Assembly (NCBI GenBank): GCA_902469965.1 | Contig: CABREP010000001.1 | Location: 26,807 to 90,806, forward strand | Direction: 5' to 3' | Length of the DNA stretch: 64,000 nucleotides | DNA from: an uncultured Lachnospiraceae bacterium | Lineage (GTDB): Bacteria > Bacillota > Clostridia > Lachnospirales > Lachnospiraceae | In this document: one piece after another, positions 12,495 to 39,047 of the stretch | Position numbering within the stretch: the stretch's first letter is position 1 | How the letters are laid out: each line of letters opens with the position of its first letter | Made by a program: the position numbers and the translations under genes | Notes under the pieces: model-generated | Databases searched by the model: none | What the model was told of the DNA's origin: nothing | Seen by the model: the letters and a program-made list of their open reading frames with translations, nothing else

Positions 12495-12530
12495 TTTCGG
12501 ACAGAAACGAAAAAATAAAAAAAAGGAAAG

Positions 12531-12600
12531 ATATAGCATTGACAACTTTCTTTGTCAATGCTATATTTGTTTTGACAAGAAAAATTGTCAAAATGACAAG
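12531..12600. promoter_or_regulatory. Operator array of TTGACAA-N6-TTGTCAA palindromes upstream of the XRE regulator
   Basis: A perfect 15-bp inverted repeat ATATAGCATTGACAA-cttct t-TTGTCAATGCTATAT lies at 12531-12566. A second TTGACAA-gaaaaa-TTGTCAA lies at 12572-12591. A third TGACAA half-site lies at 12595-12600. Confidence 0.5.
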
Positions 12601-34896: not shown

Positions 34897-35549
34897 GAGG
34901 ACTGCTGAGAAAAGACTTTTATTATATGAAGGACTACCGGAAGGTGATCCTGATCGTAGTGATTTTTTGCGGGGTGTTTATGGCTACAATGGGGGAGGCC
35001 AGCGTGGCTTTTGGAATGGGCTATGCAACGCTTCTGATGTCCATGGCGGTGCTTAACACCATGTCCTATGATGAGGAAAACCGGGGCATGAGTTTTCTTA
35101 TGGCGCTTCCGGTCAGCCGGACGGATTATGTGAAGGAAAAATATATTTTTGGCTTTCTTATGGGCTTTTGCGGGTGGATCCTGGGGGTTCTCTGGATGAT
35201 CGGAGGAAGCCTCTTCCATTCAGAAAACCCGTTTCAGCTGGAAAATCTGTGGATCAGCCTGGTGTTTCTGGGATTTTTATTTTTGAGTCAGGCAGTCATG
35301 ATACCGATCCAGCTGAAATTCGGAGCGGAAAAAGGCCGCATGATTGTAATCCTTGTGATGATGCTCCTGATTGTGGGAGGCGTGAAGATTGTGGATATCA
35401 TGATGGAAAGCGATATTCTGACGATGGAGAGAATTCAGCTGCTTCTAGAAAATGCTTTTCTTCCGGTGATTCTGGCGGCGGTTATCCTGGCTGTTTACGC
35501 GGCCTCTTTTCTGATCAGTGTTCATATTATGAAGAAAAAAGAATTCTGA
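34893..35549 (+). CDS. ABC-2 family membrane protein (permease partner)
   Basis: 218 aa with 6 hydrophobic segments. It overlaps the ATPase stop by 4 nt. Confidence 0.75.
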   Translation: MRGLLRKDFYYMKDYRKVILIVVIFCGVFMATMGEASVAFGMGYATLLMSMAVLNTMSYDEENRGMSFLMALPVSRTDYVKEKYIFGFLMGFCGWILGVLWMIGGSLFHSENPFQLENLWISLVFLGFLFLSQAVMIPIQLKFGAEKGRMIVILVMMLLIVGGVKIVDIMMESDILTMERIQLLLENAFLPVILAAVILAVYAASFLISVHIMKKKEF

Positions 35550-35587
35550 GAAAAGGACGGGCGGGAAAATATCATAGAAAACAAAAG

Positions 35588-35628
35588 ACAGGTGCGGATG
35601 ACATTTTAGAATCCGCACCTGTTTTTTT
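35588..35628. terminator. Bidirectional rho-independent terminator
   Basis: ACAGGTGCGGAT (35588-35599) pairs with ATCCGCACCTGT (35611-35622), followed by T7. An A-rich run lies on the 5' side. Confidence 0.85.
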
Positions 35629-35629
35629 G

Positions 35630-36007
35630 CTAATAGATGATATATCTCATTGTATACGTTTTCTGAGTTGACGATATGATAATACCTGTCATGATATTGG
35701 GCAGAAGTTTATTTCTTATTTTTACATGTTTCAATATCGATACAAGACGATCGTTTAAATCTTTTGATATTTCATTCTTTGATAAATCCAATGTGTCATA
35801 TACACCGTCTTTTTTATAATCCACACTGATTAATTCTATTTCAGGATTACTGTCGGGAGGAATCAGCTGTTTATTCCTAAAATATAGGAAAGATATTATT
35901 ACAACAGCAATTATTACGAAAAACCTGCTTATCTTTACCTGTATTATATCATATATTTGCAGGCATTGCCATTTCTTTCTGATTTTGAAAAGAACAAATG
36001 TTTGCAT
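35630..36007 (-). CDS. Hypothetical small membrane-anchored protein in a markedly AT-rich island
   Basis: A 125-codon ORF stays open in DNA far more AT-rich than its neighbours, where stop codons should be frequent. It has one hydrophobic helix (FFVIIAVVIISFLYF). No convincing RBS precedes ATG 36007, so the start is uncertain. Confidence 0.45.
   Translation of the reverse strand: MQTFVLFKIRKKWQCLQIYDIIQVKISRFFVIIAVVIISFLYFRNKQLIPPDSNPEIELISVDYKKDGVYDTLDLSKNEISKDLNDRLVSILKHVKIRNKLLPNIMTGIIISSTQKTYTMRYIIY
35992..36003. promoter_or_regulatory. LexA (Cheo/SOS) box candidate, GAAC-N4-GTTT
   Basis: aGAACAAATGTTTg matches the Firmicute consensus core GAACRNRYGTTY. It overlaps the -35 of the promoter upstream of uvrA. 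Confidence 0.6.
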
Positions 36008-36030
36008 GTGAGGGGAGTGCGTGGTATAAT
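36002..36030 (+). promoter_or_regulatory. Sigma-A promoter with extended -10 (TTGCAT-17-TGgTATAAT)
   Basis: The -35 is TTGCAT at 36002-36007. After a 17-nt spacer come TG at 36022-36023 and TATAAT at 36025-36030. Confidence 0.65.
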
Positions 36031-36099
36031 GATTGCACAGGGTGCAATCTAAGGCGGCAGGTGCCGCCTTCCCCCGCCAAAGGCGGGGGGATTATACCA
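36022..36099. other. A 78-nt perfect four-arm inverted-repeat module (closing 9-bp stem plus three 8-bp hairpins)
   Basis: The closing stem is TGGTATAAT/ATTATACCA. The hairpins are GATTGCAC-agg-GTGCAATC, AAGGCGGC-aggt-GCCGCCTT and CCCCCGCC-aaa-GGCGGGGG. All 33 pairs are Watson-Crick and only 2 junction nucleotides are unpaired. Its function is unknown. Confidence 0.6.
36023..36044 (+). repeat. Direct repeat copy 1 (GGTATAATGATTGCACAGGGTG)
   Basis: It is 21/22 identical to 36158-36179. Confidence 0.9.
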
Positions 36100-36157
36100 G
36101 AAGAGCCCCGGCTTGAAAAGTAAATGTCCGATGGGACGCTTCCTTTTCTGCGCGCGG

Positions 36158-36179
36158 GGTATAATGACTGCACAGGGTG
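36158..36179 (+). repeat. Direct repeat copy 2 (GGTATAATGACTGCACAGGGTG)
   Basis: It is 21/22 identical to 36023-36044 and lies 40 nt upstream of the uvrA ATG. It has no good -35 and no LexA box. Confidence 0.9.
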
Positions 36180-36218
36180 GTAAGCTATTAATTATCAGGA
36201 AGAAACAGAGGAAATAGA

Positions 36219-39047
36219 ATGGAAAAAGAAAAACAGTTTATTAAAATCCGGGGGGCAAGAGAAAATAATCTGAAGAACCTGAATGTGGATATTCCGAGAA
36301 ATGAGCTTGTGGTTCTGACGGGGCTTTCCGGATCAGGAAAAAGCTCGCTGGCTTTTGATACGATTTATGCGGAGGGACAGCGGCGCTATATGGAAAGTCT
36401 GTCTTCTTATGCCAGACAGTTTCTGGGACAAATGGAAAAACCGGATGTGGACTCGATAGAAGGCCTTTCTCCGGCAATTTCCATCGATCAGAAATCTACC
36501 AACAGAAATCCCAGATCGACGGTGGGAACTGTGACGGAGATTTACGATTATTTCCGTCTTCTTTACGCCCGGATCGGAATCCCCCACTGTCCGAAATGCG
36601 GCCGGGAGATTTCAAAGCAGTCGGTGGATCAGATGGTAGATCAGATTATGAGCCTTCCGGAACGGACGAAGGTTCAGCTTCTGGCTCCTGTAGTGCGGGG
36701 ACGGAAAGGGCGCCATGAGAAGCTGCTGGAGCAGGCAAGAAAAAGCGGTTATGTCCGGGTGATGATCGACGGCAGCCTGTATGAGCTTTCCGAGGAAATT
36801 CAGCTGGACAAAAATATCAAGCATAATATTGAAATCGTGGTGGATCGCCTCGTGATAAAAGACGGGATTCAGAAGCGGCTTACCGATTCTGTGGAGAGCG
36901 TGCTGAGCCTGTCGGAGGGGCTGTTGATTGTAGATACGATGGACGGGGGAACGCTGACTTTCAGTCAGAGTTTTTCCTGTCCGGACTGCGGGATCAGCAT
37001 TGATGAGATCGAACCGAGAAGCTTTTCCTTTAATAATCCTTTCGGAGCCTGCCCCTGCTGTGCAGGCCTGGGATATAAGATGGAGTTTGATGAAGATCTT
37101 ATGATTCCGGATAAGAGCAAGAGTATTGAAGAGGGAGCTATCGTGGTGATGGGCTGGCAGTCCTGCAGCACAAAAGGCAGCTTTACCCGGGCGATTCTGG
37201 ATGCGCTGGCGGAGGAATATCATTTTTCCCTGTCCGTTCCCTTTGAGGAATATCCCCGGGAGATTCAGAATATTCTGATCAACGGAACCGGCGGACATGA
37301 GGTAAAAGTTCACTATAAAGGGCAGCGGGGAGAAGGCATCTATGATGTGGCCTTTGAAGGGCTTGTCAGAAATGTGGAGCGGAAGTACCGGGAAACCGGG
37401 TCGGAGATTATCAAAGCAGAGTATGAGACCTTTATGCGGATCACACCCTGCCCGGAATGTAAAGGAAAAAGGCTGAAGCCGGAGTCTCTGGCGGTAACGG
37501 TGGGAGATCGGAATATTTATGAGGCGACCTCCATGTCTATTCTGAATCTGCAGGAATTCCTGCAAAATCTCCGCCTTACTGCGACACAGGAGGCGATCGG
37601 CCACCAGATTTTGAAGGAAATCCGTGCAAGAGTGGGCTTCCTGGTGGATGTGGGACTGGATTATCTGTCGTTATCCCGGGGAACGGCTTCGCTTTCAGGC
37701 GGTGAGGCACAGAGGATCCGCCTGGCAACGCAGATTGGATCTGGTCTGGTGGGAGTGGCTTATATTCTGGATGAGCCCAGCATTGGCCTGCATCAGAGGG
37801 ACAACGATAAGCTGCTGAAGACGCTGTGCCACTTAAGGGATCTGGGCAATTCCCTGATTGTCGTGGAACACGATGAGGATACTATGCGGGCGGCCGACTG
37901 TATCGTAGATATAGGACCGGGTGCGGGAGAGCATGGAGGCCGTCTGGTGGCGATGGGAACAGCGGAAGAGCTGATGAAAAATCCCGATTCTGTTACGGGG
38001 GCTTTCCTGAGCGGAAGAGAGAACATTCCCGTGCCGAAAGAGAGAAGAAAGCCCACGGGCAGACTGGTGATCAAGGGAGCGGCGGAAAATAATCTGAAAA
38101 ATATCGATGTGGAGATTCCTCTGGGAGTGGTAACCTGTGTGACCGGTGTTTCCGGGTCAGGAAAGAGTTCTCTGATCAATGAGATTCTGTACAAGAAGTT
38201 GGCGCGGGAGCTGAACCATGCAAGGACGATTCCGGGAAAACATAAAAAGATTCTGGGAATAGAGCAGCTGGACAAGGTTATTGATATTGATCAGTCTCCG
38301 ATCGGAAGAACACCCAGATCCAATCCGGCTACGTATACAGGAGTTTTTGACTTGATCCGGGATCTTTTTGCAGCGACGGCAGATGCAAAGGCCAGAGGAT
38401 ACAAAAAGGGAAGATTCAGTTTCAATATCAAGGGCGGACGCTGCGAAGCCTGTGCCGGAGATGGAATACTGAAGATTGAGATGCATTTTCTCCCGGATGT
38501 GTATGTACCCTGTGAGGTTTGTCAGGGAAAGCGGTATAATCGGGAGACCCTGGAAGTAAAATATAAGGGGAAGAGCATCTATGATGTGCTGAACATGCGG
38601 GTGGAAGAAGCGGTTGAGTTTTTTGCACCGGTTCCTTCTATAAAAAGAAAGATTGAGACGCTCAATGATGTGGGACTTTCGTATCTGAAACTGGGACAGC
38701 CTTCCACGGAGCTGTCCGGAGGAGAAGCCCAGAGGGTCAAGCTGGCGACAGAACTGAGCAGAAGAAGTACGGGAAAAACGATTTATATCCTGGATGAACC
38801 CACCACGGGACTTCATTTTGCGGATGTGAAGAAACTGGTGGAGATCCTGCACCGGCTTGCGGAGGGAGGCAATACGGTGGTGGTGATCGAGCACAATCTG
38901 GATGTGATCAAGACAGCGGATTATCTGATCGATCTGGGACCGGAAGGCGGAGACGGCGGAGGTACGCTGGTGGCCTGCGGCACACCGGAGGAGGTGGCGG
39001 AGAATCCCGCTTCCTATACCGGAAAATACGTGAAAAAATATCTTTAA
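36219..39047 (+). CDS. uvrA: Excinuclease ABC subunit A
   Basis: 942 aa with [14 protein letters not shown]..., two ABC modules ([12 protein letters not shown] and [10 protein letters not shown]) and zinc-finger CxxC pairs. Confidence 0.98.

Follow-up and report, generated by a model that had tools for sequence, protein, structure and literature searches.

A partly promoter-derived, copy-number-variable repeat in the 5' leader of uvrA in an uncultured Lachnospiraceae bacterium

The stretch of DNA considered here is a 64,000-nt piece of contig CABREP010000001.1 (assembly GCA_902469965.1, from an uncultured Lachnospiraceae bacterium), referred to below as the window, and the subject is the region between the promoter and the start codon of its uvrA gene. 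This 5' leader contains a repeat unit of 135 nt in which four perfect stems adjoin one another, and the evidence presented below largely establishes that the unit is a single-locus, species-restricted minisatellite, partly composed of the promoter core of the gene itself. The gene and its promoter (P1) comprise the following features:

35992..36003, plus strand: LexA (SOS) box GAACAAATGTTT, a LexA site predicted from sequence that overlaps the -35
36002..36007, plus strand: -35 hexamer of P1, TTGCAT, with a 17-nt spacer to TATAAT, kept in sister lineages
36022..36030, plus strand: extended -10 of P1, TGGTATAAT, which doubles as the 5' arm of the closing stem described below
36207-36212, plus strand: ribosome-binding site of uvrA, AGAGGA, unpaired in the predicted fold of the leader
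36219..39047, plus strand: uvrA coding sequence, 942 aa, with the UvrA_inter and UvrA_DNA-bind Pfam domains

Relatives of the encoded protein at 91% identity are named excinuclease ABC subunit UvrA; the nearest named organism is Candidatus Egerieimonas intestinavium (91% UvrA identity), followed by Blautia species. Apart from this LexA box, the window has no GAAC-N4-GTTY site. At no fewer than nine other Lachnospiraceae loci (L011, L012, L013, L016, L048, L067, L111, L115 and L119) uvrA is likewise preceded by the box, with TTGCA or TTGAA after it and a -10 about 17 nt further on, and a UvrA search of genome contigs, in which the matches listed were at most 84% identical, led to loci that also have the conserved LexA-box promoter. 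Two sister lineages (UvrA 91% identical, approximately 50% different at fourfold sites) keep the box, in a form that starts with AAAC, together with the -35, the 17-nt spacer and TGGTATAAT. A GAAC-N4-GTTC-type box that lies over the core promoter and is conserved at orthologues is the layout expected of an SOS promoter, and its presence before uvrA in many Lachnospiraceae and in the sister lineages implies that P1 is the ancestral SOS promoter of the gene. An earlier reading of this DNA, made from the sequence only, had already pointed out the extended -10, the TTGCAT with its 17-nt spacer and the LexA-type box over the -35, and was correct on all of them. Other arrangements are also found in the family: in many Lachnospiraceae (L007-L086) uvrA lies directly after uvrB without an intervening LexA box, and in others, as in the window, it stands alone under its own LexA-box promoter. 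The longer "UvrA" matches P0026, P0028, P0036 and P0038 were considered as possible upstream fusions and discarded, as they are different UvrA proteins.

The unit itself begins at the -10 of P1, and its parts are the following:

36022..36156, plus strand: full repeat unit of 135 nt (134 nt in alleles that are one G shorter in a G-run)
36031..36049: hairpin 1, GATTGCAC-AGG-GTGCAATC, the 5' arm of which would contain the start site of P1
36050..36090: 41-nt insert made of T, hairpin 2 (AAGGCGGC-AGGT-GCCGCCTT), hairpin 3 (CCCCCGCC-AAA-GGCGGGGG) and G, which splits the inverted copy of the promoter segment
36091..36099, minus strand: 3' arm of the closing stem, ATTATACCA, which on the minus strand reads as the extended -10 TGGTATAAT
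36105..36160, plus strand: imperfect long hairpin ("hairpin 4"), formed in the minimum-energy fold of the leader by the remaining 54 nt of the unit and the start of the next repeat copy
36125-36138: weak terminator-like stem of 5 bp, then a T-rich run, inside hairpin 4
36114..36119, minus strand: candidate antisense -35-like hexamer TTTTCA, 17 nt from the minus-strand TGGTATAAT (10/12 in a consensus scan, with TG)
36019..36044, plus strand: direct repeat copy 1, GCGTGGTATAATGATTGCACAGGGTG
36154..36179, plus strand: direct repeat copy 2, GCGGGGTATAATGACTGCACAGGGTG, the start of a next, truncated unit with neither LexA box nor -35

The complementarity between TGGTATAAT (36022-36030) and ATTATACCA (36091-36099) produces a closing stem of 9 bp, inside which three perfect 8-bp hairpins adjoin one another (36031-36049, 36051-36070 and 36071-36089). 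In this module of 78 nt (36022-36099) there are 33 Watson-Crick pairs, and the only unpaired junction bases are T36050 and G36090. The sequence-only reading had described precisely this arrangement; on re-reading the sequence every coordinate and pairing of its four stems was right, and so were its pair count and its two unpaired bases. The minimum-energy structure calculated with ViennaRNA is exactly the four-way junction for both strands (-50.9 kcal/mol and z -8.3 for the plus-strand RNA, -51.2 kcal/mol and z -8.8 for the minus-strand RNA), the value for DNA is -35.6 kcal/mol (z -8.2), and none of 200 shuffled controls folds as well, a comparison of the kind that the earlier reading had proposed. 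Another way of looking at this is to count perfect hairpins of at least 8 bp with loops of 3-6 nt: the 64-kb window contains 16, some of them nested, against an average of 3.1 in shuffles, and three of the 16 are those of the module, next to each other.

The module does not correspond to a known kind of RNA in the searches performed. A permissive Rfam scan of 35500-36700 on both strands gave hits at chance level only; the best overlapping one, TLS-PK3, reaches 19.8 bits where the threshold is 80 (E 0.15). This agrees with the earlier statement that no named RNA family could be recognised; ARAGORN called no tRNA or tmRNA over the whole window, and the loops are indeed of 3-4 nt, as had been noted when the size and topology were likened to those of a tRNA. 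Hairpins 1-3 are not called as intrinsic terminators on either strand, the only site called by the scan being the weak stem at 36125-36138.

The construction of the unit points to the promoter as the source of part of it. The segment TGGTATAATGATTGCAC (36022-36038) consists of the -10 of P1 and the first transcribed bases, and its reverse complement is GTGCAATC followed by ATTATACCA: positions 36042-36049 and 36091-36099 match it exactly (17/17). The closing stem and hairpin 1 are thus one perfect palindrome of 17 bp with the loop AGG, and its 3' arm is split by 41 nt (T, hairpin 2, hairpin 3, G), the two hairpins of this insert being unrelated, GC-rich and perfect. The order within the unit is therefore the -10/+1 segment of the promoter, its split reverse complement and the imperfect long hairpin. 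An exact reverse complement beside its source is what a template switch leaves behind, and the formation of perfect stems and of paired changes by template switching, within a single step, is documented (PMC8794818). It is proposed that the inverted and the direct copies of the segment may go back to one event, a template switch that folded back at the promoter and returned upstream. For the two fillers, of 41 nt and 54 nt, BLAST gave no source elsewhere in the window. A separate observation concerns one of the sister lineages (L093-L096), in which the first 60 nt past the -10 contain imperfect inverted repeats of their own that begin at the -10 (GGTAT...GCA against TGCGCATACC, and GGCGGCTG against CAGCCGC); this hints that the stretch just past the uvrA promoter repeatedly gains inverted copies.

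The second characteristic of the unit is its direct repetition. The sequence-only reading had noticed that 22 bp of the promoter core recur before the ribosome-binding site without a -35 or a LexA box; the recurrence is real and both absences hold, and its true length is 26 nt (24/26 identical) at a spacing of 135 nt. Conspecific contigs, chosen as those encoding an identical or 99%-identical UvrA, number 22, of which 15 have one full unit plus the 26 nt and seven have two plus the 26 nt. The distance from the LexA box to the ATG is 226-227 nt in the one-unit set (the window, L001-L006, L098, L099, L105-L108 and L123) and 360-362 nt in the two-unit set (L100-L104, L120 and L122). The contig L110 (GCA_029782595.1) has a single full unit, and its distance is 368 nt because of a 141-bp duplication. 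No allele without a unit occurs among the 22. One and the same UvrA protein allele (P0008) is found with one unit and with two, the units of different strains combine, mosaic-like, a small common set of variants, and two contigs break off within the repeat. Head-to-tail copies, the number of which is polymorphic within the species, are the hallmark of a minisatellite or variable-number tandem repeat (VNTR), and the changes in number would result from unequal recombination or slippage between the direct repeats.

Several trivial or competing identities were considered for the repeat and set aside. It is not a coding unit, its length being 134 or 135 nt according to an indel in a G-run. It is not an assembly artefact, as the module is present in more than 20 independent assemblies, including the two-unit contigs L120 and L122, named "polypolish" (the name suggests polished long-read assemblies); L123, with one unit, is an NCBI contig of 589 kb. 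Nor is it an inverton, since the order of the hairpins is the same in 22/22 conspecific contigs and no recombinase is found among the neighbours. The 141-bp tandem duplication of L110 (approximately 860-1003 of that contig) is a separate event. It starts midway along hairpin 4, takes in the second -10 and the ribosome-binding site and extends over the first ~22 codons of uvrA, and its junction shows a microhomology, AAATGC; it may be real or an artefact of assembly, and it suggests that the site is slippage-prone.

The distribution of the unit dates it and, at the same time, bears on whether it came from elsewhere. In both sister lineages TGGTATAAT is followed immediately by unrelated, shorter leaders (of approximately 85 and 155 nt) without the unit, which cannot be aligned with the window past the -10, so that the template-switch event itself is not reconstructable; more distant relatives keep the box and the promoter and have different leader hairpins of their own. 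The presence of the unit in L110 (15.1% different from the window at the fourfold sites of uvrA) and its absence from the sister lineages place its origin after the split from the latter and before the split from L110. The earlier conclusion that some 135 bp had been added between the SOS promoter and uvrA is borne out, since the sister lineages with the same LexA box, -35 and TGGTATAAT core lack the stretch.

The earlier reading had also considered that this addition might be a small non-autonomous element bounded by 9-bp terminal inverted repeats, which would make it a mobile element, of the miniature inverted-repeat transposable element (MITE), REP or PATE type, that inserted itself into the uvrA leader. 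The terminal inverted repeats exist (TGGTATAAT/ATTATACCA), and with a hairpin-rich interior they are typical of such elements. However, the left "terminal repeat" is the ancestral -10, which occupies the same register in the sister lineages that have no element, and, being identical in both of these module-free lineages, the 5' arm of the closing stem has to be an ancestral promoter element. No target-site duplication surrounds 36022-36099, as its flanks, GTGCG and GAAGAG, have nothing in common. What the 26-nt repeat encloses is a stretch of 109 nt instead of the module, and the length of this repeat greatly exceeds that of known target duplications. REP/BIME and IS200/IS605-associated elements are defined by numerous copies, across a genome, of one imperfect palindrome, together with a cognate Y1 transposase; the three hairpins of the module, in comparison, differ from one another in sequence and are perfect.

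Further copies, which a mobile element should have, were not found either. Within the window, a pattern search (three mismatches), BLAST of the fillers and a covariance model gave no second copy; over 771 kb (the window and 89 loci of other Lachnospiraceae) the covariance model recovered the window copy only. The exact 25-mer of hairpins 2-3 has one match in metagenome contigs, at the same uvrA locus, and the module has no match in viral contigs, plasmids or phages (plasmids and phages by distant blastn). The search for copies in related genomes and the alignment of orthologous uvrA regions, both of which had been suggested with the original observation, therefore agree, for the sequences covered, on a single locus in a single species, absent from the sister lineages. 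With neither a target-site duplication nor a second copy in the collections searched, insertion of a mobile element is an extremely unlikely origin.

The question of what the unit does, if anything, depends on what is transcribed. Given the usual 6-8 nt beyond the -10, transcription from P1 would start at approximately 36035-36039, in the 5' arm of hairpin 1. As the -10 is the 5' closing arm and the start lies inside hairpin 1, the P1 transcript cannot form the module as drawn, and the earlier idea that RNA from the SOS promoter takes up the four-armed structure has to be restricted to a circularly permuted version that uses repeat copy 2. This copy had been said to have no hairpin partners; in the transcript it can in fact pair with 36042-36049 and 36091-36098. 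The predicted P1 transcript (36037-36240) folds at -70.5 kcal/mol (z -3.2), with hairpins 2 and 3 intact and GUGCAAUC paired with GACUGCAC of repeat copy 2, which closes the permuted junction with hairpin 4 as its cap and leaves the ribosome-binding site free. In the two-unit strains the second unit would be wholly transcribed and is predicted to be able to form the complete junction.

The reading preferred here, tentatively and at somewhat less than an even chance, is that this self-templated single-locus minisatellite is kept by selection as a structured 5' leader. The LexA-controlled P1 would remain the promoter of uvrA. A start inside hairpin 1 would place hairpins 2 and 3, intact, within ~15 nt of the 5' end, and the transcribed 3' arms, together with repeat copy 2, would rebuild the permuted four-way junction, capped by hairpin 4 and with the ribosome-binding site free. 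The unit would then act as a stable leader that protects the 5' end of the mRNA or insulates it, and the minus-strand TGGTATAAT and the second -10, which is free of LexA, would be by-products of a palindromic and repeated construction. Counted in favour of selection on the leader are the lack of a zero-unit allele among the 22 contigs and the low divergence of the stems.

The latter property was evaluated among strains. In 11 distinct variants of the module, 5/12 loop and junction positions vary, compared with 6/66 stem positions (Fisher P 0.01). When L110 is compared with the window, 2/66 stem positions have changed (binomial P 0.002 with the 15% of the fourfold sites as expectation, and P 0.006 when the -10 arm is excluded), as have 3/10 loop positions. 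The innermost pair of hairpin 3 exists as C-G, C.A and T-A across alleles and is the sole pair changed on both sides.

The neutral alternative holds that the palindromes and the repeat are mutational debris built by template switching and slippage, with no effect on uvrA expression, and that they persist because perfect palindromes correct themselves by intrastrand template switching. Stems can be created and repaired in this way without selection (PMC8794818), and neutrality agrees with the restriction of the unit to one locus and one species, with a copy number that drifts between one and two even within one UvrA protein allele, with the decay of the terminal repeat arm and of hairpin 4, and with the other tandem duplication (141 bp) at the same site in L110, which suggests a slippage-prone spot. 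Nevertheless, recombination between 26-nt repeats should delete units as readily as it expands them, and expansion is seen in seven contigs whereas a zero-unit allele is seen in 0/22; the stems have diverged by 3% as against 15% at fourfold sites; and self-correction alone should accumulate paired changes, of which one is seen. On balance, neutral debris is an unlikely explanation, albeit one that deserves to be taken seriously.

A number of facts weigh against the proposal of a selected leader. A covariation analysis did find one paired replacement of C-G by T-A; its score, however, is reached by 25/500 shuffles, and no other pair has changed on both sides. The whole leader is only ~8% different from that of L110, so the conservation of the stems does not significantly exceed that of the sequence around them. 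The apical stem of hairpin 4 is not conserved in L110, the hairpin-1 (b) arm of the terminal repeat copy gathers mismatches (GACTGCAC, GACTGAAC and AATTACAC), and together these changes indicate that the permuted junction in the RNA is not under strict maintenance; internal units may also have one or two mismatches in hairpin 1. An RNA stem, a DNA palindrome that corrects itself and an operator that binds a dimer would account equally well for arms that stay the same around a centre that varies. As to the origin, the simple fold-back model leaves the 41-nt and 54-nt segments unexplained. Finally, short-read assemblies can collapse repeats of 135 bp, which makes the allele counts approximate, and of this genome itself the searches for copies covered the window.

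The same sequences could act at the level of the promoter, as in the convergent-promoter switch that the sequence-only reading had listed. The minus-strand TGGTATAAT and the TTTTCA 17 nt from it would form an antisense promoter directed leftwards from ~36084, which may collide with P1 or occlude it, and the LexA-free second -10 (36157-36165) may give basal transcription independent of damage, so that copy number would tune the output of uvrA. The minus-strand site scores 10/12 with the TG extension, equal to P1, and is present in every unit; the -10 of the terminal copy does not vary between alleles, and L110 has the full TGGTATAAT there, while the adjacent bases decay. On the other hand, the spacing of the antisense site is not conserved, as a 3-nt deletion in L110 cuts it to 14 nt, and a 4/6 hexamer at the right distance is expected by chance about once in ten cases by our own estimate. 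The second -10 lacks a -35, and in most strains the T of its TG motif is missing; moreover, no antisense terminator-like site was called in 35400-36400. Such a promoter-level switch is regarded as improbable.

A further alternative, akin to the ssDNA/cruciform-forming site of the earlier reading, places the function in the DNA, where a four-way junction would sequester the -10 and serve as a supercoiling-sensitive brake on P1, as a replication pause site or as a platform for a protein that binds junctions or palindromes. The module in the window is equally perfect on both strands and made of Watson-Crick pairs only, a pattern that a DNA palindrome, more than an RNA, should show; the closing stem contains the -10, and tandem duplications have arisen repeatedly at the site. 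However, the extrusion of a compound palindrome of 78 bp with arms of 8-9 bp from duplex DNA is kinetically unfavourable, three different palindromes would require three binding specificities, and no relevant regulator or junction-binding gene is seen next to the locus. A role as a DNA structure is accordingly rated as very unlikely.

The most elaborate possibility joins these elements in a selected, self-templated cassette, in which the four-way junction in RNA and/or unwound DNA, the antisense promoter opposite P1 and the LexA-free -10 near the ribosome-binding site would act together, and a copy number of one or two would tune UvrA before and during the SOS response. This would make the region a contingency-type locus for DNA repair in a gut commensal, a proposal that is considered fairly improbable.

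Returning to the minisatellite itself, it is species-restricted, copy-number-variable and partly promoter-derived, and its kin are the intergenic minisatellites and the palindromes produced by template switching. With the intergenic VNTR and minisatellites of bacteria it shares head-to-tail units of ~135 nt, a number that varies among strains, chimeric units and assembly breaks, and it differs from them in that the unit holds the gene's own promoter core and an inverted copy of it, folds into a perfect four-way junction, is present at only one or two copies and is lost in 0/22 contigs. The resemblance to template-switch quasipalindromes (PMC8794818) lies in the 17/17 inverted copy beside its source, with a loop of 3 nt, as well as in the Watson-Crick stems and the paired replacement of C-G by T-A. 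Unlike them, the uvrA unit has its inverted copy split by 41 nt with two further palindromes, and its 26-nt direct repeat and 54-nt segment go beyond a single switch.

More distant similarities can be drawn with three other systems. Miniature inverted-repeat elements of the Correia and ERIC type have promoter-like ends, tens to hundreds of dispersed copies and target duplications. The uvrA unit is like them in its size of ~80-150 bp, its terminal inverted repeats with a -10-like TATAAT, its location in a 5' leader and its hairpin-forming transcript, and unlike them in its single locus, the lack of a target duplication and a left arm that is the resident promoter. The leaders of ermC and aprE in Firmicutes carry 5'-terminal stem-loops that stabilise the mRNA; very stable GC hairpins within ~15 nt of the predicted 5' end and a free ribosome-binding site recall them, yet the uvrA structure, known here from its predicted fold, is far bigger than a stabiliser needs and is repeated. 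Lastly, Horwitz and Loeb reportedly made in 1988 a synthetic promoter regulated by a cruciform, with an engineered simple palindrome. There too the -10 lies within an inverted repeat and extrusion would hide it; in uvrA the arms are 60 bp apart around three hairpins, and extrusion is hypothetical.

The surroundings of the locus include a GntR regulator, ABC transporter genes, mreB and a recD2-like helicase gene. Divergent from uvrA, on the minus strand, an open reading frame of 125 codons (35630-36007) had been labelled an AT-rich orphan. It is instead the decayed copy of a gene for a protein of 150 aa that is intact in other strains of the species: compared with the intact copy (L002, 2211-2663), stretches of 115 bp and 64 bp are missing in the window. 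The protein has an N-terminal membrane anchor, exists in other strains in a version of 104 aa, and in its intact form gave no family in a Pfam search. In the sister lineages (L087-L094) the place of this small membrane protein gene is taken by a divergent operon with a padR-family regulator, which indicates that the neighbourhood upstream of uvrA has been reshuffled and that the downstream mreB and recD2-like gene have been retained.

Two other structures were noticed in the window. Directly after the gene of the ABC-transporter permease, a strong hairpin of 17 bp followed by a T-run (35583-35627), missed by a simple terminator scan, looks like the terminator of the transporter operon, which sets this operon apart from the uvrA region. 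In an intergenic region at 12530-12600, two adjoining operator-like palindromes are based on TTGACAA/TTGTCAA: ATAGCATTGACAA-CTTTCT-TTGTCAATGCTAT, then TTTGACAA-GAAAAA-TTGTCAAA, followed by ATGACAA.

If the proposed history is true, the uvrA leader is a natural example, in a population, of a long and perfect multi-stem structure that arose almost at once from its own promoter by template switching and was then multiplied through recombination between repeats. The intermediates still segregate among strains, as C-G, C.A and T-A at one pair and as one unit or two, and the case would bear on the old question of how perfect RNA and DNA stems originate. Should the unit have no effect, it would be a curiosity that does no harm, and would caution against reading an RNA gene into impressive thermodynamic z-scores. 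If, on the contrary, it alters the expression of uvrA, its copy number would be a simple route to differences among strains in the capacity for nucleotide excision repair.

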